DNA of 64,000 nt from a virus. The notes below the pieces were generated by a model. It was not told where the DNA came from, searched no databases, and saw nothing but the letters and a program-made list of their open reading frames with translations. The stretch is from the IMG/VR virus record IMGVR_UViG_3300026613_000033, positions 505 through 64,504 of that record, one strand, 5' to 3'. Below are positions 36,595 to 47,809 of the stretch, piece after piece. A program made the position numbers and the translations under genes. Position 1 is the stretch's first letter. Each line of letters opens with the position of its first letter.

Positions 36595-38247
36595 TTATGA
36601 ATCGTCTTCCACTGTTACGACGATTTGAACATCAAAGAATTCGACCATGCCCGAACTATCAGTAAACTTGTAAGTCACTGGGTAACGAGGTAATTCCTCG
36701 TAGATGTTCAAGCCGTTATCATTGATGATGGTAATTGCATTCTCAATCTGTTGTGGGGTGTGTCCATTGTAAGGAATCACCGTGCCCACTGTAGACTCAC
36801 TTGTCACGATATTGTATTGTTCGTATTCGTCACTTAATCCAACTTCAGCAAGCTTGCTCAAGATGTCGGAATCGATTGTCAAGTTTTGGTTGTTGTCAAG
36901 ATAACCGTAACCAACCAATGTCGGGTTGTCTTCGCTTGGCACCATCACCAAACTCACTTGACGGTTTACATCCTGATATGACGCATGATGGAACGTGTAC
37001 TTAACTTGTTGCTTCGGTAAGTATTGGTAATAGTTCAAACCTGCTTCCACCAACTCTTCGTACTGTTTCCTTAATTGGTAACGTGTCTCGGCACCAATGT
37101 AATCAATACGAACGTCATCGTCGTAATCCACATCGTTTTCTAAGTCTAAACTCACAATGCTTTCAAAAGACGTACTCACTGGGGTGATGTCGATACTCTT
37201 CGTCAAGTCAACCTCTTGAATACTTGGCCATACATCTTCTGGCGCAATGAAACGTTGGAACGGATGCAAACGACCCTCGCCGATAATTTCGTCACCGACT
37301 ACGCCGCCACCGTCGCCCCAATCATACCCTTGTGGTTTACGCGGGTAATCCGTACCCTGTGTAATGATGTCTTCAGCAATAAAGTCACCATCTTCATCCA
37401 CAACATCAATACGTGTCGTCGATACATGGCCTTCTTTACCGTTTTCTGGCATGAATAGCTCGTCGGTATCTGGGATGCCCACTGGAACATCCGTCGTATC
37501 AAAGTGGTTGATGACGTAGTTAAGGAAAATATGTTCGATAGGCATTTTCTCTGCATTGTCACCGCAGTAATCCGCACCCACTTCGATGTCGATGCCTACA
37601 CCGCCACTACCGCCTGTGCCTACTTGGTAGCCGGGATAGCCGTTGAGCATTCCCCAGTAAGGGATGGTCATGGTGAAATCAAGTGTCCACGTCAATTCAC
37701 GTTTACCCGCCGTGGCCAATTCTCCTTGGAAATCATTATCGAATGAGATACCCACTAAGGTGATGTCACTACGGTCAAACTTACATTCACCGATTTGGTC
37801 TGGGAACGCTTTTACACGCACATTCAATGTCGGTTTGAAGTACGGGATAATCTGCTCAATAATCATAAAACCTTCTGTCAATGTCTTGGCTTTCACATTC
37901 AATTGAAAACCAAGTATCCATGGTGAAGGATGCATCGTGGTAAACTTCTTACTACCGTCTTCGCAGCAACATTCGATTTCCATGGTGTCGCCATCGCCCG
38001 TCACTTTTACTGAGTCATAAAGCATTGAAGAAATACCAAAAGACATCATCGGCAATTGACGGTCAATCATGTTTCTTTCGTCGTCATTGGTTCTCGCGAC
38101 ATGGTGTTTTTCGACACCTTGATACATGATAGGAACGGCTGTTAATTCGTCGTCCTTCTCTGTGTATATATTCGAGAATAATGAACCAAAAACCGTCACA
38201 GCATGTAACGTCGTTGAATTGTTATAAAACAGTTGTTGGCCTTGCAT
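36595..38247 (-). CDS. gp15: Tail sheath stabiliser / tail terminator gp15 with C-terminal extension
   Basis: FGSLFSNIY...VPIMY...LPMMSF...YD...P.PW.L.F.L.......MIIEQIIPYFKP; follows gp14. Confidence 0.85.
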   Translation of the reverse strand: MQGQQLFYNNSTTLHAVTVFGSLFSNIYTEKDDELTAVPIMYQGVEKHHVARTNDDERNMIDRQLPMMSFGISSMLYDSVKVTGDGDTMEIECCCEDGSKKFTTMHPSPWILGFQLNVKAKTLTEGFMIIEQIIPYFKPTLNVRVKAFPDQIGECKFDRSDITLVGISFDNDFQGELATAGKRELTWTLDFTMTIPYWGMLNGYPGYQVGTGGSGGVGIDIEVGADYCGDNAEKMPIEHIFLNYVINHFDTTDVPVGIPDTDELFMPENGKEGHVSTTRIDVVDEDGDFIAEDIITQGTDYPRKPQGYDWGDGGGVVGDEIIGEGRLHPFQRFIAPEDVWPSIQEVDLTKSIDITPVSTSFESIVSLDLENDVDYDDDVRIDYIGAETRYQLRKQYEELVEAGLNYYQYLPKQQVKYTFHHASYQDVNRQVSLVMVPSEDNPTLVGYGYLDNNQNLTIDSDILSKLAEVGLSDEYEQYNIVTSESTVGTVIPYNGHTPQQIENAITIINDNGLNIYEELPRYPVTYKFTDSSGMVEFFDVQIVVTVEDDS

Positions 38248-38253
38248 TTCTTA

Positions 38254-39420
38254 TTACCACCCTTTAGGTACTTGGAACGGCATTGTCTCATTATCGTCAC
38301 CGCCGTTATCATCTTCTTCGTCGTCTTCGCAGTCTTTACAACCGCAACCACAATCATTATCACCACTGCACTCTAAACCTTCTGGTAATGGCACTGGGAA
38401 TGGTTTACCATCTATTGTGTCATCACATGGTAAAATACCATTGCCATTATCGCCTTCGCAGCATTCACAATCACAGTCTTCGTCGTCGCAGTTACAATCG
38501 CATTCAACTTCCCTGCATTCACAATCACAGTTTTCCGTATCTTCGCATTCGCAGTCACAACATGTGCAAATGGTATTACCGTCTTCGTCTTCTTCGCAGT
38601 TGGTACAGTTGCTTCCGCCACCGCTTCCGCTGTCACCACCGTCGCCGACGATTAAGTCACGACCGCCGATATAAAGGTCACGGTTTTGAGCCGTCTTAAC
38701 AACGTCTTTGATATTGCCTGATTCATTACCGTCTTCGTCGATATTGGCGAATACAGCGTCAAGGCCAGATGTACTAAGTTTGTTGATGTCGTCTTGTTCA
38801 TTGAACAAATAGTTTTGCTCGGTGCCGCCATTAGTGAAATCGATGTCTTCATTAGAGTAGTCCATTAATGACATCTGAATCTCGTAATAATACTCACCAC
38901 GCAATTGATACTTGATTGGGTCTTTATTAACGTATGTGATTTCGAATATCTTCGCTCTATTTATCTCGACATGTTCACCCACAACAATCTTAGGGATAGT
39001 TTCGCCGACGTTTTCAGCCTCACCGAATGAAACCAGTATTAAATCGCCCTCTTGTGGCTTAGAAGGCACTTTCCCCGCGTTGTCTGGGTCAAGGTATTCT
39101 TCTCTCCAACGGCCTTTACTGATTTGTATAGTGGCGTTCTGAGACAATCCCAAACCGAACAAGTCATAGTGAACACCTTCACCGCCTGCCCATTCATCAT
39201 AGTGGGCTAATGTACCCTCAATCATAAAAGAGCGTGTGAATTCTGGTGATGTATCTTCACGCCATGCATTTCTGACTTCTTCTTCGTCGCGGATAACGTA
39301 AGTGACGGCGAAGCCGCCAATCTGAATCACTTCATCGACTAGAGTCTGTACTAAATTACGTTCGTTACGATTACCTACACTGGTGCCAGAGTTAAAGAAG
39401 CCATTTATCTTCGCCGCCAT
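38254..39420 (-). CDS. gp14: Neck protein gp14 with Cys/Asp/Glu-rich C-terminal extension
   Basis: E..LVQTLVDEVIQI.G....YV.R, FG..L......IS..RW, P.EGDLI, FEI..V....YQL...Y......DYSNE match gp14. Confidence 0.85.
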   Translation of the reverse strand: MAAKINGFFNSGTSVGNRNERNLVQTLVDEVIQIGGFAVTYVIRDEEEVRNAWREDTSPEFTRSFMIEGTLAHYDEWAGGEGVHYDLFGLGLSQNATIQISKGRWREEYLDPDNAGKVPSKPQEGDLILVSFGEAENVGETIPKIVVGEHVEINRAKIFEITYVNKDPIKYQLRGEYYYEIQMSLMDYSNEDIDFTNGGTEQNYLFNEQDDINKLSTSGLDAVFANIDEDGNESGNIKDVVKTAQNRDLYIGGRDLIVGDGGDSGSGGGSNCTNCEEDEDGNTICTCCDCECEDTENCDCECREVECDCNCDDEDCDCECCEGDNGNGILPCDDTIDGKPFPVPLPEGLECSGDNDCGCGCKDCEDDEEDDNGGDDNETMPFQVPKGW

Positions 39421-39692
39421 TACTTGTCACCGTCGCTTTTCTTCTTAGCTGCCGCTTTCTTCTTTGGCGCAGGCTTTTTAACCAAGTCCGCCACCAAAGC
39501 TTTTAGCTCATCAAGTTCACTCTGAAGCGTGTCAACACGTTTGACCTCTTCTTTCAATTCCTTGATTTCAGCCAATTCTTTTTTGCGCATGGCCACACGT
39601 CTTTTGTGCGCCGTGTATTTAGAATCGTTGTTAAGAACGACGGTGCCATTTGACACCGTGTAATCATTGTTTTCTTTTGCCTTTGCCATCAC
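39420..39692 (-). CDS. Small basic coiled-coil protein
   Basis: 90 aa, tightly coupled to both neighbours; G.V.N.D..Y..HKRR followed by a heptad helix; occupies a slot typical after VrlC-like genes. Confidence 0.65.
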   Translation of the reverse strand: MMAKAKENNDYTVSNGTVVLNNDSKYTAHKRRVAMRKKELAEIKELKEEVKRVDTLQSELDELKALVADLVKKPAPKKKAAAKKKSDGDK

Positions 39693-39699
39693 AAACCCC

Positions 39700-42600
39700 T
39701 TATTCTGTTAATGCGATAACACGCAAGTTTCTCATAAAGCCATAGAAAGCTTCCGACGTTGAATGGTGTACAATCATCACCTTGAAGTCATTGAATTCAG
39801 GTAATGGTGTTTCCTCACCAATGACAATCTCGGCTTGTTGTTCTTCCGCGTTTGTCACTTCAGTGGCGTGGTATACCCATGACACATCTTCGAATGATTC
39901 GTCTGTACCTGATTCCAAAGTCTTGTAATAGATACTGAACTTATTCTCTTCGTACATTTCGTATTCGAACATCACCTTGATTGCCACCGCAGGGTTATTC
40001 AACTCAATCGGAATCGTGACGTGCTTAGACAATGCCTTAGCAGGGTCAACACTTTCCCAACCGTCGTCGCCTTCAGTGATGTCACCTGTAATAACAGGGT
40101 CAGCCACAAGGTTGTTAATCAATGTACGAGTCGTCAATACTTCCATTTCTTCGGTGTCGAACACTGGTGATAAGTAACCGTCATCAGAAGCCCACATATC
40201 GATAGTGGCGGTTAATGATTTAGGGTTATCACCTAATGCACTATTTTCCGCACCCGCATTCACCTCAGATACAACAAGACGTGGTTGGTCTAAAGCGAAT
40301 TCCTCGTTTAATGGAATTGGGAATACACGCAATGCCTGTTCTGGTGGAACTTCGGCATTTGGCTCCGCACTCGCTGAGTGACCATAGTTCTGTGTGTCTA
40401 ATGTTGAGTTGACAAATGTACCGTTTGGTTGTAATACGTTGGCCATAACACGACATGTATCAAACTGGATATTCTGCGACGCTAATACATCGGCACCACC
40501 TTCACCGCTTTGAGTAGCAGGCGAAGTCACTTGGATGGTATAGCTGTTCGCGTCAATCGTCGTAATCGTATGTGGCGCACCATTAATCTCACTCAATGGA
40601 ATACCAAAGAATGTCGAGAATGTATTACCGCTTGATGTGATTGAAACTAAGCCGCCACCGTCATCAACCTCTGTAACTTTAACGTAGGCATCGCCTGCGC
40701 CTGAAATATTCTCAATCACTAATGTGTCATTAACTGCGAAGCCACGACCAACCGCACCGATTTGAACGTTTCTGTCGTACACCGCATCTTTGAATGAAAT
40801 GTTGAACGTCGCATCTTGACCATTACCACGAGTGATTGTGTAATCATCATAGCCAATCAAGTTATTACGGTTCGATGTCGCATTCAAAATACGCACTTTG
40901 TTATTGTTGATTTTGTTCGGCACCAAGTTGTTCTGCATACTATGCGCAGGGTGGAATACCGTAATGATATTAGAGCCAGTTTCGGTTTTTAATGACACGC
41001 CATTTTGCTCGTCACCAATCGCACGGTAATCTGGGTCTAGTTCGTTAATCATTTCAACTTGACCGTTCTCTACGAACTGACAACGACGTAAAGTAAACTT
41101 CAAATCTTTTGTCTGTTCGGCTGTCCATGTAGACGCATTCTGAGACTTAAATAATGAACCAAGGTACGGCTGTGACGAGATGTATTCATCTGTGTCAATT
41201 GTACGTTTACCCATTTCAGAAATGTATACGGCATTACGACCAGAAGGCGTTTTTAATACCAATGCATATTCTGTGTCTGCACGTAAGTAAACTGGGTAAT
41301 CGAACTGCGCACGACTTTGTTGTCTACCGTTCGTTGACGTGTACAATTTGTTTGCACGAGGCCAGTTTGGGTTAGACTCGAATGACATATCGCCGGGGTA
41401 CATTTTCACATAAGAACCCGGCACCGTATTACCCGTCGGATAACCGTTGTCACACGTTACGATTTCGACTGATACGAATGGGCCGTATGATTTTGGGTTT
41501 CTCCAATGGAACGTGATGAAGTTGATGAATTGGTTCGCTGAGTCGAATTGAATCTTCTCGTTGTTTGTGAAGTAATCGTCTTCATCAAGTTCACCAAAGC
41601 CTGCCGCAATTTGGTTAGCAGGTACATTACCGCCACGGGCAATTAATGCTTCATTAAATCCGTATACACCGAAGTTAGTTAATAAGCGACGAATCTCATT
41701 AGGATTCTTCCAACGCTCACCACCTTCGATGAATTGTGGGAAAATATCAACGCTCGAAACAAAGCAATCTTTCTCAATTAAGAATGACTGTGCAATAGGG
41801 TCATACCAACGTGTACGACTGCCTCTTAAATTACTTGAAACGCTACGCTGTAATGTCGTGCTTCTGCTTGTACGAGTCGATGTCGCCGAACGACGAACCG
41901 CCGTGATGTTACGAGTGTGTGTCAAGTGTTGACCGCTCGCTTCATACACCGCATCAGCCGATGAAATAGCGTCATCTTCTGTAGCAATCTGGAAAGTACG
42001 CTTGCCACAATTAAACTTACCCGCAGGCAAAGCAAATACACCGTAGCAGTTACCTAGCTCATCGGTCATTAACTCACCCTTCTCACCAAGTACACCACCT
42101 TCGATGATGTTATCTTCGTACTGGGCACAATACTGTGTCACATCCTTTCTATCGAACTTCGCAAATACCTTCGTATTCGGACGCATCATTTCAACACGGA
42201 ATGTGATGTTACGACCTCTCATTTTATCGATAGATGCAACCGTCGTTGTAATACCACGGTCATTGAATGATACAACACGGTCTGTATTCGTCGTTGTTCG
42301 CACTGTACGGGTCGCCACGCGAGTATCGATACGTCTTACCGTACTACTACGCAAGTTGATACGAGCTTCCCTAGAACGCAATTCACGGCCAATCTGACCT
42401 GTTCTACGGTTGACGAAGTTGAACGATGTACGGAAACCACTAAAACGAGTAGAAACCGTTGTCGAACGACGTGTCACTGGACGTAACCAACTACTGAACG
42501 TGCTTGCATTACTTGTACGACGTACTTGACCATTTGAGAATACAACAACAAGGTTATTTCTGTTGCTGTGTGTACGCCAGAAATCCTTCGATGGTGATAG

Positions 42601-45600
42601 GCGCATTGTACCCGCCCATGTCCATGCATCGTATGGGTTAATTTTGATAATACCCGTCGCTTTAGGTTGACGAATCAAGTTCACTTGTCTGTAGTCCAAT
42701 GTGATTAAACCGTCATTGTCTCGGAAGTTACTACCCGCACCCGTAAACTTTTCCATATTCACAGTCTCATAACCCTTCGCAGGGATAAGAGCGCGTTCGG
42801 TGTCGTCAACAATCATCGTGTTGTCTGGGTCATCAATGTCTGTACGAGTTTCATCGCTGAACGTATCCGCCATGAAACCTAATTTAAGACGTTCTTGGCC
42901 AGTGATGCCATTAGTTGTCACATCACTTAATGCCGCCAACTCAATCGAGTTAAGAGAAACGATTTCTTGCAATTGGTCTAATGACTCTTGCAACTCACCG
43001 ATGTCACGCATTGTGTAGCGACGGTTGTTGATTGTCTCTAAAGTAATCTCGTCTAAGTAGCGAGTATAAGGCGGTAATGTAACCACGTTAATCTTCATCG
43101 CATCATCAACTTCTGAAGCAGGCGCAGGGTCAATCGACGGCGCACCTTGTACGTTGATGAAGTCACCATCTTTCGTTAAGTAGATAGTATCAATACGACC
43201 TTCATAAACTGTCAAGTCCGCCACAATCTCGGTGCCGCTCACTGGGTAACGTACAGGACTACCAAATTCGCGATTGTCAAAGTAGAAAGGAACCACTGTA
43301 CGGTCAGCCGTCACATTAGAGTAAACCTGCAATGGACGGAAGTCGAAGAAGTCTCTTAAATCTTGGAAGTTCGCTTCATTGAAGTTTGATGGGTCATAAA
43401 TTGACCTACGGAACATCTTGTCTTCACCAATAGATGGCGTATTGTACGTTGACGCATCAGAGAAGTAAGTAGGCACCGTATCCTGTACAGTAAGGTGTGA
43501 GAATAATACAGAGATTACACCCGTCGCACGTTCGGCATCTTCTTTATATTTCAAACGACCTACAAGCGTCATATTCTTACGTTGACCAGTGTCAATTAAG
43601 AAACGGTTTGTGATGTCAGTCGATGAAGACTCTTCAAAGAATGAAATGTCGTTTTTCAATTGTTGACGGATTACAGTACCGTTATCACTAACCTGTAAAA
43701 TTTCTTCGCCTTGTAAGAAACCGCTACCCTCAATCTTAACAACTTCTACCTCTAATTCGTTACCCGTCGCATTCTCTAATTGCATAGATGGGTCGATATT
43801 AACAATGTTGGCATTGTCGTATAAGAATTGCGTGGTGTCCGTACTACCCTGAATAGAGTTTGAACGGAATACGATAGCTGTCGTACCAGAAGAAACACCA
43901 TGAAGAACACGACCGATTGCGAATGCCGCCGTAGGCACTGTCGGTTCAATCATTCTTAATGTGTGTCCGCGTGGCGGTAAAGGCACGTCATTGTCGTCTT
44001 GTGTTTCAAGTACAACTAAACATTTCTGAACGTCCACTTCTAATGCAACGATACGGTCATCAGCACGGTAGCCTAGCGCGTAGTTGCCATATGGAATAAA
44101 GCCTTGCGCAGGGGCATAGTCTTGAGCAATTTCGTGTTCAGTGATTGTCGCACCAGTAGCTGTACCCATATTAACTGGAACCACTGGAAAAGGTGTCGTC
44201 ATTGTATCTGGGAATGTCATCACCACCCACTCATCATTAACCGCGCCTTTGTCGCCGTCTGGGTGTGCTGAACCATCACTGATTGATTCCCATGCATTCG
44301 TACCCGCCGCCGCTGAAAGCGCGTTTCTCACCTTACCTGCAATCTGCGAAGTAGAGTCACCAGTCGTCAAAGATACAGTAACACCATACACATCCCAATC
44401 ACCATCGACGGCGATACTGCCCGATGAAACATGGAACGCTGTGATTTGTGGCATCACTGGCATAGCTTGTTGACCAAATTGGTCAGTGAACGCCGCCGCA
44501 TCATAACGATAGTTTTTGAATTCTAAGTTTTTAGTACGCGCCGTTTGCTCCGTGTGATATACAGGCGGGTTAAACGTCGTACCATCCCACTCAATCGCTT
44601 CATACGAAATTTTATCCGCACTTTGCATAGTGTATGTTGTGTTGAAAACAGTCGCACTAGGACGGCCTATTAATGACAACGCATCAGCCGTTGGGTTATT
44701 CACCCATAGAGTCGGTTGGTTGGTGTCGTTTGTTCTAATTTCAGTGACGAAACGGAAGTTGTCATTAGTCTGACTACCGCCACGACGAACGATGTCGAAT
44801 AGCGATAATGTCTTAACGCCGATGTCGTCATTGATTTGTTGAATACGAGCTTCACCTAAGATTTGTTGGCCACTGCCGATGTCACCCCAAAGCTCAACAA
44901 CGCCGGGTTGTGGACCTGTGCCGTTCCACTGTAAACCAACGCCATACTCAATATCGAATAACTGAATACCCGTCGGTGTCGTGCTACCTAATGCATCAAC
45001 AATCTGAACAACGTTACCCGTTCTTACTGGCGTAGGAACCTGTGTCAAAACACTGGTTGTTCTCGGACGCGGGGCTTCTAAACGTGTCGTACCTTCTTTC
45101 TCGATTTCGTAACCACGAACGTATGCCTTAGACGCACCAAGGGCTAATGTGTATGAATCCGTATCTTCGATTTCAACGCCATTGTCGTCTAAGAAAGTTT
45201 GGTCTACGGTTTCCTCGATTTCCGCTAGGAACGGGTTAAGGTAGTAATCACCAGACTCGTCATAAGTACGCGATGCCATGATGTCAACAATCGCCGAATA
45301 CTGTACTTCATCAGAAAGGTTTTTAAGAATCTCATTCTGCTCAACACGTAATAGTTCGATGAAGTTTTGGTCACGGTCTTCTTCAAGGCCACGCGACGCT
45401 AAAGTCAATTCAGCTTTAAGACGGTGTGCGCCTTCCGTACCAAACGAACTACTACCGCTCGCATTATCATAAAGCGATGGGTCTTCAGATGCATCAATGA
45501 AGCTAGATGTGATAACGAAACCAATCTTACCGTCGAATAAAGCCTCTGTTGTCGCGTCCACCGCTTCAGGGTTTTCTAAACCATCACCATAGTCAAGCGT

Positions 45601-46293
45601 CGTCGTCAATAGAATTAATTGAGGGTTGGCCAAAATGAAGTTACCGTCAACGTAGTATGTACCTTCTTGGTTACGTGCAATGACACCCTGTACAGTACGG
45701 CCAAATACACATGCATACGTTTGGTTGATTTCACCAACGTTATCTTCAACCAAAGCTTCCAACTGTTCTGAGAAAAGGAAACGTTCGACTTCACTGCCTT
45801 CTTGGTAATCGACACCACCGATTTCCGTATTGCCTGCCGCACGTTCAACAATCTCCGCATTCATTGTGCCCGATTGTAAGTAAGAAACGATAATACGAAT
45901 CGGTTTGTCTGAAGTGGCGGTTTCATCAATAACGTCTAATACCGTCGCCTTGATACCTGTATCACGACCAGTGATTGTCAAACCCTTCAAACGCTGAACG
46001 TCTTCTGGGGTATATGCCAAACTAGTTGATTCGTTGATGCTGTTCAAAAGCGTGTATTCGTTGATTAACAATACATCCAAGTTACCAATGCTTACACCGC
46101 CGTCTAGGATGTTGGAACCATTTCGGAAGAAGTGGTCGCCGAAGCTTTCCATTTGGCTTTTAAGAATGGATTGTAGTGTGGTTAATTCACGGGCTTGTAC
46201 TGGCTTGCCGGGTCTGAATAAGACGTGAACGAAGCCTTTCGTTTCATCAAAGTCGTCATAGTATGGCTTGATGTTTAAATTCTGTAATGGCAC
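39700..46293 (-). CDS. VrlC-like / DUF4815 large baseplate structural protein (2197 aa)
   Basis: PYYDDFD..K.F..VLFRPG.PVQARELTTLQSIL..Q.E.FG.H.F.NGS, RTYDESGDY, KAYVRGYEI, DPIAQSF, QPYLGSLFKSQNASTWT.EQ..DLKF. Confidence 0.9.
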   Translation of the reverse strand: MPLQNLNIKPYYDDFDETKGFVHVLFRPGKPVQARELTTLQSILKSQMESFGDHFFRNGSNILDGGVSIGNLDVLLINEYTLLNSINESTSLAYTPEDVQRLKGLTITGRDTGIKATVLDVIDETATSDKPIRIIVSYLQSGTMNAEIVERAAGNTEIGGVDYQEGSEVERFLFSEQLEALVEDNVGEINQTYACVFGRTVQGVIARNQEGTYYVDGNFILANPQLILLTTTLDYGDGLENPEAVDATTEALFDGKIGFVITSSFIDASEDPSLYDNASGSSSFGTEGAHRLKAELTLASRGLEEDRDQNFIELLRVEQNEILKNLSDEVQYSAIVDIMASRTYDESGDYYLNPFLAEIEETVDQTFLDDNGVEIEDTDSYTLALGASKAYVRGYEIEKEGTTRLEAPRPRTTSVLTQVPTPVRTGNVVQIVDALGSTTPTGIQLFDIEYGVGLQWNGTGPQPGVVELWGDIGSGQQILGEARIQQINDDIGVKTLSLFDIVRRGGSQTNDNFRFVTEIRTNDTNQPTLWVNNPTADALSLIGRPSATVFNTTYTMQSADKISYEAIEWDGTTFNPPVYHTEQTARTKNLEFKNYRYDAAAFTDQFGQQAMPVMPQITAFHVSSGSIAVDGDWDVYGVTVSLTTGDSTSQIAGKVRNALSAAAGTNAWESISDGSAHPDGDKGAVNDEWVVMTFPDTMTTPFPVVPVNMGTATGATITEHEIAQDYAPAQGFIPYGNYALGYRADDRIVALEVDVQKCLVVLETQDDNDVPLPPRGHTLRMIEPTVPTAAFAIGRVLHGVSSGTTAIVFRSNSIQGSTDTTQFLYDNANIVNIDPSMQLENATGNELEVEVVKIEGSGFLQGEEILQVSDNGTVIRQQLKNDISFFEESSSTDITNRFLIDTGQRKNMTLVGRLKYKEDAERATGVISVLFSHLTVQDTVPTYFSDASTYNTPSIGEDKMFRRSIYDPSNFNEANFQDLRDFFDFRPLQVYSNVTADRTVVPFYFDNREFGSPVRYPVSGTEIVADLTVYEGRIDTIYLTKDGDFINVQGAPSIDPAPASEVDDAMKINVVTLPPYTRYLDEITLETINNRRYTMRDIGELQESLDQLQEIVSLNSIELAALSDVTTNGITGQERLKLGFMADTFSDETRTDIDDPDNTMIVDDTERALIPAKGYETVNMEKFTGAGSNFRDNDGLITLDYRQVNLIRQPKATGIIKINPYDAWTWAGTMRLSPSKDFWRTHSNRNNLVVVFSNGQVRRTSNASTFSSWLRPVTRRSTTVSTRFSGFRTSFNFVNRRTGQIGRELRSREARINLRSSTVRRIDTRVATRTVRTTTNTDRVVSFNDRGITTTVASIDKMRGRNITFRVEMMRPNTKVFAKFDRKDVTQYCAQYEDNIIEGGVLGEKGELMTDELGNCYGVFALPAGKFNCGKRTFQIATEDDAISSADAVYEASGQHLTHTRNITAVRRSATSTRTSRSTTLQRSVSSNLRGSRTRWYDPIAQSFLIEKDCFVSSVDIFPQFIEGGERWKNPNEIRRLLTNFGVYGFNEALIARGGNVPANQIAAGFGELDEDDYFTNNEKIQFDSANQFINFITFHWRNPKSYGPFVSVEIVTCDNGYPTGNTVPGSYVKMYPGDMSFESNPNWPRANKLYTSTNGRQQSRAQFDYPVYLRADTEYALVLKTPSGRNAVYISEMGKRTIDTDEYISSQPYLGSLFKSQNASTWTAEQTKDLKFTLRRCQFVENGQVEMINELDPDYRAIGDEQNGVSLKTETGSNIITVFHPAHSMQNNLVPNKINNNKVRILNATSNRNNLIGYDDYTITRGNGQDATFNISFKDAVYDRNVQIGAVGRGFAVNDTLVIENISGAGDAYVKVTEVDDGGGLVSITSSGNTFSTFFGIPLSEINGAPHTITTIDANSYTIQVTSPATQSGEGGADVLASQNIQFDTCRVMANVLQPNGTFVNSTLDTQNYGHSASAEPNAEVPPEQALRVFPIPLNEEFALDQPRLVVSEVNAGAENSALGDNPKSLTATIDMWASDDGYLSPVFDTEEMEVLTTRTLINNLVADPVITGDITEGDDGWESVDPAKALSKHVTIPIELNNPAVAIKVMFEYEMYEENKFSIYYKTLESGTDESFEDVSWVYHATEVTNAEEQQAEIVIGEETPLPEFNDFKVMIVHHSTSEAFYGFMRNLRVIALTE

Positions 46294-47359: not shown

Positions 47360-47809
47360 TTATTGGTATTTTTTCATCAGCTTACCCGTCTTAGTAAGCT
47401 TGTCTTGGTAGGCTAATGCGTCCGCCACAAACGCTTCCATTTCTGCGTCATCTTTTGCATTTCTGCGCACTTCCATATCAGCCGATAACGTATGAGAAAA
47501 CTTCCCGTGGAACGTGTAGTAAGTGTTGCCATTAACTTCGCATTCATTAACATCGATGCTCTTAACATTGATGCGAACTCTACCTCTGTCGATACGGATG
47601 AACATACCCACTTCAACGTCTTTGGCTTTCAACGTCAACTTGTCTTCTAAGTATTTTTTAGCGGCGGCTCCGCGTGGGGTAAACTTGTACTTACGGCCAT
47701 GGCAACCATAGCAGACAGTGCCGTCTTTTAAGTTAAAAGAATATTCACCAGTGCCATGACAGCGTGGGCAAGTGATGGTTTCAAAAAGGTCTTTAGCTTG
47801 GTGTTTCAT
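47360..47809 (-). CDS. Early protein with DnaJ-type CxxCxGxG zinc finger
   Basis: CPRCHGTG and CYGCHGRK; GAGGGG RBS; own promoter and terminator. Confidence 0.75.
   Translation of the reverse strand: MKHQAKDLFETITCPRCHGTGEYSFNLKDGTVCYGCHGRKYKFTPRGAAAKKYLEDKLTLKAKDVEVGMFIRIDRGRVRINVKSIDVNECEVNGNTYYTFHGKFSHTLSADMEVRRNAKDDAEMEAFVADALAYQDKLTKTGKLMKKYQ

Follow-up and report, generated by a model that had tools for sequence, protein, structure and literature searches.

Cysteine-rich inserts in the predicted gp15-docking arm of the gp14 neck protein of an uncultured marine T4-like myovirus

Results

Identification of a gp14 neck protein gene with a cysteine-rich tail

The window analyzed here comprises 64,000 nucleotides (positions 505 to 64,504) of the IMG/VR virus record IMGVR_UViG_3300026613_000033. 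The source contig is a 71-kb viral fragment, estimated by CheckV to cover ~32% of the genome, and contains the complete structural module. The subject of this study is an open reading frame (ORF) on the minus strand of the window, 38254..39420, which encodes 388 amino acids followed by a stop codon and constitutes a complete gene. The gene encodes the gp14 (Hc2) neck protein of a divergent T4-like myovirus, uncultured and marine, and the C-terminal part of the protein is densely set with cysteines in an acidic background. A first-pass annotation of positions 38254-38612, which correspond to residues 270 to 388 and the stop codon, had described this part as a metallothionein-like tail fused to gp14.

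The gp14 assignment, already made in that annotation, was borne out by hidden Markov model (HMM) matches, by a fold match to T4 gp14 and by the position of the gene directly before gp15. PF11649 (T4_neck-protein) matched residues 15 to 130 with 39.7 bits against a cutoff of 25 (E value of 4.7e-10), and the 388-amino-acid protein was also matched by PHROG 679 (E value of 8e-25) and PHROG 460 (E value of 2e-24), both designated "head closure Hc2." A profile of the clade described below matched the T4 gp14 chains 9mkb and 9lu4 at E values of ~9e-8. The AlphaFold2 model built from a 100-sequence alignment gave predicted local distance difference test (pLDDT) scores of mostly 69 to 96 over residues ~18 to 195, with a dip to 50 to 61 at residues ~131 to 150. 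The predicted core consists of an N-terminal helix and a beta-barrel, as in the solved T4 gp14. When this model was searched with Foldseek, the best match was T4 gp14 (9mkb, E value of 9.7e-10), 9lu5 and 9lu7 were also returned, and the next matches after T4 gp14 were other phage stopper or neck proteins. An AlphaFold2 run on the seven-sequence alignment of the clade gave a mean pLDDT of 35. BLASTP aligned residues 18 to 194 with residues 37 to 182 of T4 gp14 at ~24% identity. A gp15 homologue begins 7 nt downstream of the gp14 stop codon, and the same gp14-gp15 order was found in related contigs and in 68 IMG/VR loci. In T4, gp14 forms a hexameric ring with the gp13 dodecamer on one side and the gp15 hexamer on the other (PMC12929587), so that the six copies per virion assumed at first pass are a fair estimate. 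The features of the gene and its downstream neighbor are as follows.

38254..39420, minus strand: gp14 (Hc2) gene, complete (ORF, PF11649, PHROG 679/460, Foldseek)
38836..39420, minus strand: gp14 core, residues 1 to 195, predicted N-terminal helix and beta-barrel with the stopper-loop region (AlphaFold2, BLASTP)
38650..38835, minus strand: proximal arm, residues 196 to 257, acidic, with short predicted helices, conserved in the clade (alignment, pLDDT 46-63)
38608..38649, minus strand: Gly/Ser-rich linker, residues 258 to 271 (translation)
38458..38607, minus strand: Cys block 1, residues 272 to 321, 17 Cys (Cys positions, direct repeats)
38449-38559, minus strand: four tandem units making up the main part of block 1, residues 288 to 324 (27-nt-spaced direct repeats)
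38377..38436, minus strand: first half of the putative docking motif, residues 329 to 348, I-L-P-C-D-D-T-I-D-G-K-P-F-P-V-P-L-P-E-G (alignments A1 and A2)
38281..38370, minus strand: Cys block 2 and poly-Asp/Glu run, residues 351 to 380, 5 Cys including CGCGC (translation)
38257..38280, minus strand: terminal motif PFQVPKGW, residues 381 to 388 (clade alignment)
36595..38247, minus strand: homologue of the gp15 tail-sheath stabilizer/terminator, 550 amino acids (PF16724, E value of 1.8e-34)

The protein has exactly 23 cysteines, the number first reported, and all of them lie in residues 272 to 364, with none in residues 1 to 271. This stretch of 93 residues is 25% Cys and 33% Asp plus Glu and has a single Phe but lacks His, Tyr and Trp; the 22 intervals between successive cysteines include 11 CxC, 2 CC and 2 CxxC. 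The remaining ORFs of the window contain 110 Cys in ~20,400 residues (~0.54%), and at this background rate the chance of at least 23 Cys in 93 residues is ~2e-31. The Gly/Ser linker before the stretch and the PFQVPKGW end after it were likewise as first described. The likening to metallothioneins holds for composition, the stretch being dominated by CxC, with CC and CxxC besides, and almost devoid of aromatic residues and His. It does not extend to their being small free proteins, since the stretch is internal to a structural protein of 388 residues, in which a conserved motif comes after it in the same frame. The reading frame is fixed on both sides of the Cys blocks by L-x-C-D-D-T-(L/I)-D-G-x-P and F-x-L-P-x-G-W, which are kept in frame in the relatives. 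Two plus-strand ORFs (38283-38699 and 38417-38674) were rejected as genes and regarded as by-products of the repeat composition. An Fe-S cluster site was also rejected, as the canonical CX2CX2CX3C-type spacing is absent from the tail. A search of the ESM Atlas with the tail returned structure matches that were all below a template modeling (TM) score of 0.31 and no usable feature match.

Relatives of the protein

Relatives were sought in 5.8 billion clustered proteins and, exhaustively with HMMER, among 1.84 billion representatives. Only six with such an arm were found, all from marine metagenomes, including Tara Oceans. The protein studied here (P0001) and these six (P0002 to P0007) are referred to as the clade, and the numbers of tail cysteines in the relatives are as follows.

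P0002: 1 tail Cys; closest relative, with 71% identity in the aligned part
P0007: 1 tail Cys
P0005: 4 tail Cys
P0003: 7 tail Cys
P0004: 8 tail Cys
P0006: 14 tail Cys

P0006, whose core is only 53% identical, holds a homologous block 1 with 13 Cys, including the C-E-C-C end before the docking motif, and a CxC remnant was seen at the place of block 1 in P0003 and P0004. The block 2 insert was found in P0001, P0003 and P0004, was short and without a CxC cluster in P0005, and was absent from P0002, P0006 and P0007. Since P0002 lacks both blocks, they are dispensable for neck function and can be regarded as accessory.

Outside the clade, 144 representative gp14 proteins had a maximum of 5 Cys in the whole protein, and 68 gp14 genes from IMG/VR had a maximum of 2 Cys in the last 130 residues. 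The cysteine-rich arm is restricted to one clade, none of these 212 other gp14 proteins being Cys-rich. The survey of gp14 homologues suggested at first pass thus recovered cysteines in the tails of the six marine relatives and no Cys-rich tail beyond them. No further relatives came from IMG/VR (searched with alignment A1) or from JGI metagenome contigs (searched with A1 and A2). A megablast search with 4 kb against 50,697 phage records gave no match, nor did a tblastn search with the tail against the same records, and a word-based search with the tail in the 5.8 billion proteins returned only the protein itself. Only one other contig, JGI 3300029585, carries the 23-Cys protein; over 7.2 kb the two do not differ, and it is hence not an independent observation. 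On the contig of P0006 (L005:1-945), stop codons were present where the gp14 N terminus is expected and the downstream gene was not gp15; the copy may be truncated or rearranged, or the assembly may be at fault.

Correspondence of the tail to the T4 docking arm

Residues 178 to 256 of T4 gp14 are acidic and are disordered in the isolated neck, and in the virion this arm locks onto the side of the gp15 ring, a positively charged surface (PMC12929587, PMC12929629). The T4 arm has a net charge of -12 and ends in SSPFDNDFMD (residues 246 to 256). Because residues 18 to 194 of the protein studied here pair with T4 residues 37 to 182, residues 195 to 388 are taken as the equivalent of the T4 arm, grown from ~74 to ~194 residues. 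The proximal arm matches the beginning of the T4 flexible arm, from residue 183 onward, and in the clade alignment A1 many of its columns from residue 203 to residue 251 show no variation. The last 133 residues carry a net charge of -39.

The two arms also agree at their ends. The family motif (N/D/S/T/H)-P-(F/W) was found within the last 20 residues of 95 of the 144 representative gp14 proteins outside the clade and also in 58 of 68 gp14 genes located beside gp15 in IMG/VR contigs; the usual terminal form is (I/L)-D-(F/W)-x-E-x-N-P-F-G-(E/D)-(F/Y). The variant found in the clade reads L-x-C-D-D-T-(L/I)-D-G-x-P-F-x-L-P-x-G-W. This variant runs uninterrupted in P0002 and P0006, an insert divides it in P0001, P0003, P0004 and P0005, and P0007 has a divergent form with neither the Cys nor PF. 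The C terminus is F-x-L-P-x-G-W in six clade members and D-L-E-N-W in P0007, the last Trp being invariant (7/7). C332, in the docking motif, is the only tail Cys kept in six of the seven members. The conserved end of gp14 lies beyond the "hook" (residues 231 to 245) of the T4 virion structure, and its binding site may be one that has yet to be described.

The protein thus resembles T4 gp14 in HMM family, core fold, position before gp15 and possession of a flexible acidic arm with a P-F-containing end. It differs in that the T4 arm has ~74 to 79 residues, with one Cys in the whole protein, whereas the arm here has ~194 residues, 23 Cys and two inserted blocks. In sequence terms, the arm is acidic and flexible and ends in the family P-F motif, and the Cys-rich tail appears to be the ordinary gp15-docking arm of gp14 carrying inserts rather than a new appendage. 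The earlier statement that T4 gp14 has no such tail was inaccurate in this respect; T4 has a flexible acidic arm at residues 178 to 256, and only the Cys blocks are new.

By homology to T4, the Cys blocks should lie outside the neck-tail joint and not in the DNA channel, for which the stopper loops of the gp14 core serve as the gate in T4 (PMC12929587, PMC12929629). This bears on the stronger versions of the roles first suggested for the tail, in which it would be a virion metal reservoir delivered to the host, or would gate the DNA-exit channel as a sensor of redox state or ions; we regard these as highly improbable. Such a sensor is not expected on an arm placed, as in T4, on the outer gp15 ring side. 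The Cys density would give a real metal-binding capacity (compare PMC4292183), and the Ferrojan Horse hypothesis suggests that marine phages carry metals on their tails (bioRxiv 10.1101/674382). However, if each of the six chains held ~6 to 7 ions, as metallothionein stoichiometry would imply, a virion would carry ~40 ions, a negligible quantity of nutrient that lends the reservoir no support. The module is also missing from the closest relative, P0002.

The gp15 partner

The gp15 homologue, expected by analogy with T4 to be the docking partner of the gp14 arm, has 550 amino acids, twice the 272 of T4 gp15. Its N-terminal domain contains four cysteines, C94, C95, C155 and C228, which do not vary among the gp15 proteins of six clade members, that accompanying the Cys-poor P0002 among them; T4 gp15 lacks cysteine altogether. 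C228 is located just past the region that can be aligned with T4 gp15 residues 1 to 192 and is probably near the beginning of the segment that binds gp14 in T4 (residues 203 to 245), judging from the alignment. The four cysteines could form a Zn site or disulfides, either within gp15 or with C332 of gp14. A complex prediction with two copies of gp15 (residues 1 to 260) and gp14 residues 322 to 388 gave no answer in either direction (score of 0.01).

Architecture of the cysteine blocks

Block 1 is built of four tandem units of 9 to 10 amino acids, CDCEC-EDTEN, CDCEC-REVE, CDCNC-DDED and CDCEC-CEGD, with flanking cysteines, and a repeat finder recovered these units as direct repeats at 27-nt spacing. 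Between copies, the CxCxC cores were identical at 10 to 15 of 15 nt and the spacers at 4 to 7 of 12 nt, with nucleotide identities of 83% and 46%, respectively (Fisher P values of 7e-7 for all pairs and 6e-5 when three copies are each compared with one). The Cys codons of the cores, 12 in all, differed only between TGT and TGC, with no nonsynonymous change. As the CxCxC cores are far better kept between repeats than the spacers, the cysteines look selected. Tandem Repeats Finder called no array in block 1, which indicates that the duplications there are not recent; its sole report was a 22-nt array with a 9-nt period in the acidic run of block 2. Growth through tandem duplication of a 27- to 30-nt unit would best explain the repeats of block 1. 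Block 2 lies inside the docking motif with PF-x-VP on either side, and this flanking pair suggests a duplication of the terminal motif.

A tolerated repeat expansion is a possible, though doubtful, explanation of this architecture. Slippage or unequal crossing-over would have amplified an ancestral CxC seed in a disordered linker, the cysteines having no specific chemistry, and the array would serve as a longer spacer allowing the arm to reach around the enlarged gp15, which is double the T4 length. The tandem 27-nt arrangement is typical of slippage products, yet the CxCxC cores outlast the spacers between copies, their Cys codons change only synonymously, and the cysteines are retained in repeats that are old, with no array found over block 1 by Tandem Repeats Finder. 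The region is disordered in T4 (PMC12929587) and of low pLDDT here, and the number of tail Cys varies strongly over the seven members (1, 1, 4, 7, 8, 14 and 23), the closest relative, P0002, being without both blocks. A homologous Cys block nevertheless persists in P0006 despite a core only 53% identical. Cysteine is otherwise avoided, at ~0.5% of the window proteome and with few occurrences in the 212 other gp14 proteins, and many useless reactive thiols on the virion surface should be costly. In the first-pass annotation, highly variable, low-complexity drift among relatives had been held to speak against a function of the tail. The counts of 1 to 23, with a single Cys in P0002, fit this picture in part, but the CxCxC cores have been kept from unit to unit, which speaks against drift alone.

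A similar cysteine ladder beside a radical-SAM enzyme

IMG/VR viral contigs were scanned for two CDCEC-type cores 12 nt apart, and a similar CDCEC ladder was found near a PapB-like enzyme in another phage. This locus (L015:3-7023) corresponds to ~149.4-156.4 kb of the 188-kb contig IMGVR_UViG_3300021592_000001. It encodes a protein of >1,766 amino acids with an F5/8 type C domain, a domain of carbohydrate-binding type, that ends in tandem units of 8 to 9 amino acids, CDCEC or CGCDC plus acidic residues. Downstream of the ladder are a 127-amino-acid ORF without a family match and then a radical S-adenosylmethionine (SAM) enzyme of 381 amino acids, whose best NCBIfam match was the PapB family NF047865 (E value of 2e-53, full length, below the equivalog cutoff). 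The phage has no T4-type gp14. A looser C-(D/E)-C-(D/E)-C pattern searched at the DNA level returned mainly simple hexanucleotide repeats. Proteins in which short acidic CxCxC arrays lead into very long regions of poly-Asp/Glu or rich in Ser/Thr were also seen in L011 and L012 (viral contigs of ~262-270 kb) and in L014 (44 kb); they have hydrophobic stretches that are putatively membrane spanning and resemble large eukaryote-type virus products.

PapB joins Cys to Asp or Glu by a thioether bond in Cys-Xn-Asp/Glu, with n = 0-6 (PMC9413430). A PapB-like radical-SAM/SPASM maturase might in the same way staple the Cys-Asp/Glu ladder of gp14 into thioether rings, giving a rigid neck segment resistant to proteases and to redox change, but this is rather unlikely. 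The likeness to PapB/PapA freyrasin and to L015 lies in the repeated Cys-Xn-Asp/Glu, and the CDCEC-plus-acidic unit of L015 is nearly identical. In gp14, Cys3-X3-(D/E)7 and Cys5-X3-(D/E)9 are found in four of the four repeat units, which is weakly significant given the acidic composition of the spacers, and in P0006 the spacing between Cys and acidic residues is not fixed. Known ladders lie beside their enzyme and at the extreme C terminus, whereas the gp14 ladder is internal, has no small partner gene as in the ranthipeptides and L015, and has no evident leader or recognition element. No match to PF04055 (Radical_SAM), PF13186 (SPASM) or NF047865 was found on the 71-kb contig, a result that is not conclusive because about two thirds of the genome lies outside it. 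No radical-SAM enzyme is called near gp14 in the gene tables of the related contigs.

Genomic neighborhood

Upstream of gp14 (39420-46293, minus strand), gp13 is not adjacent; a 90-amino-acid PHROG 473 virion protein and a DUF4815 protein of 2,197 amino acids, with a weak gp11-like stretch, are found instead. The order DUF4815 protein, PHROG 473 protein and gp14 recurs in the 79.8-kb contig of the closest relative. Further upstream of the DUF4815 gene, an island of small genes includes an ORF of 149 amino acids with 5 Cys (47363-47809, minus strand), which gave weak, subthreshold matches to the zinc-ribbon-like families DUF7567 and Anti-TRAP.

Discussion

We tentatively favor, at somewhat less than even confidence, the view that the Cys blocks of this gp14 form accessory "beads" of metal-thiolate or disulfide type on the docking strap, by which the outer neck-tail joint would be stiffened or locked. 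In this scheme, the arm would have been lengthened by two insertions of CxCxC units and Asp/Glu spacers, and its conserved ends, L-x-C-D-D-T-I-D-G-x-P-F and F-x-V/L-P-K-G-W, would still dock. Between these ends, the Cys blocks would most likely collapse into compact thiol-based knots, which may be Zn(II)-type metal-thiolate clusters made in the reducing cytoplasm, disulfides formed in oxic seawater, or both. Six such beads on the outside of this joint would then stiffen or lock the head-tail strap, possibly together with the four invariant Cys of the gp15 of this clade. The metal or disulfide chemistry and the stabilizing role are inferences, as is the position in the virion, which is taken from T4. 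For a cytoplasm-made sequence of this kind, Zn-type metal-thiolate clustering would be the simplest chemistry. No sulfhydryl oxidase, thioredoxin or oxygenase was found among the small ORFs of the window.

A thiol-based function is favored over a purely neutral expansion because the cysteines are confined to the clade and are kept both in old repeats and across lineages. Precedents can be found for both types of chemistry. Ribosomally made (Glu-Cys)n peptides, "synthetic phytochelatins" of the form (Glu-Cys)n-Gly such as EC8 to EC20, bind Cd and other metals, according to a statement in PMC4292183 that cites Bae et al. 2000. Together with metallothioneins, they resemble the gp14 stretch in having ~25% Cys with CxC dominant, few aromatic residues or His, and alternation of acidic residues with Cys. 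In contrast to metallothioneins, the gp14 stretch is an insertion in a virion protein and far more acidic, with no sequence-family match. In the cyanophage Pam3, disulfide linkage of the baseplate and fibers was shown by cryo-electron microscopy, mass spectrometry and dithiothreitol treatment (PMC9942802). Pam3 is likewise an aquatic myophage in which Cys-rich loops of virion proteins give covalent, redox-sensitive joints, but these joints are in the baseplate and involve a few defined Cys, whereas the feature reported here is a 23-Cys repeat array in the neck.

Several observations weigh against the beads. The acidic context of the Cys blocks is unlike that of classical metallothioneins, and the tail (searched as residues 262 to 388 and 270 to 330) had no Pfam or NCBIfam match, metallothioneins included, even at an E value of 10; the tail of P0006 likewise had no match in these databases at this threshold. 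AlphaFold2 gave pLDDT scores of 43 to 49 over the tail, with no confident fold, from a method that ignores metals. P0002, the closest relative, lacks both blocks and keeps a single tail Cys, and the 23-Cys form is known from one metagenomic genome. Finally, the near-identical unit of 9 amino acids with CDCEC in L015, from another phage, adjoins a PapB-like radical-SAM enzyme and thus points to a different chemistry.

The 2026 T4 neck structures identify the C-terminal arm of gp14 as the clamp of the tail onto the DNA-filled head. If the inserts are a tolerated expansion, they show how much change in length and composition a docking arm can absorb while its terminal motif is retained. It is also conceivable, although we consider it unlikely, that the phytochelatin-like CxCxC array and the four Cys of gp15 together form a cysteine-based lock around the neck, made of metal-thiolate clusters, a disulfide ring or thioether staples. 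Head-tail attachment or stability in seawater would then depend on the metal or redox state. Metal- or redox-dependent closure has not been described for any phage neck, and such a lock would be the first example of thiol chemistry, whether based on metal, disulfides or thioethers, where a phage head joins its tail.

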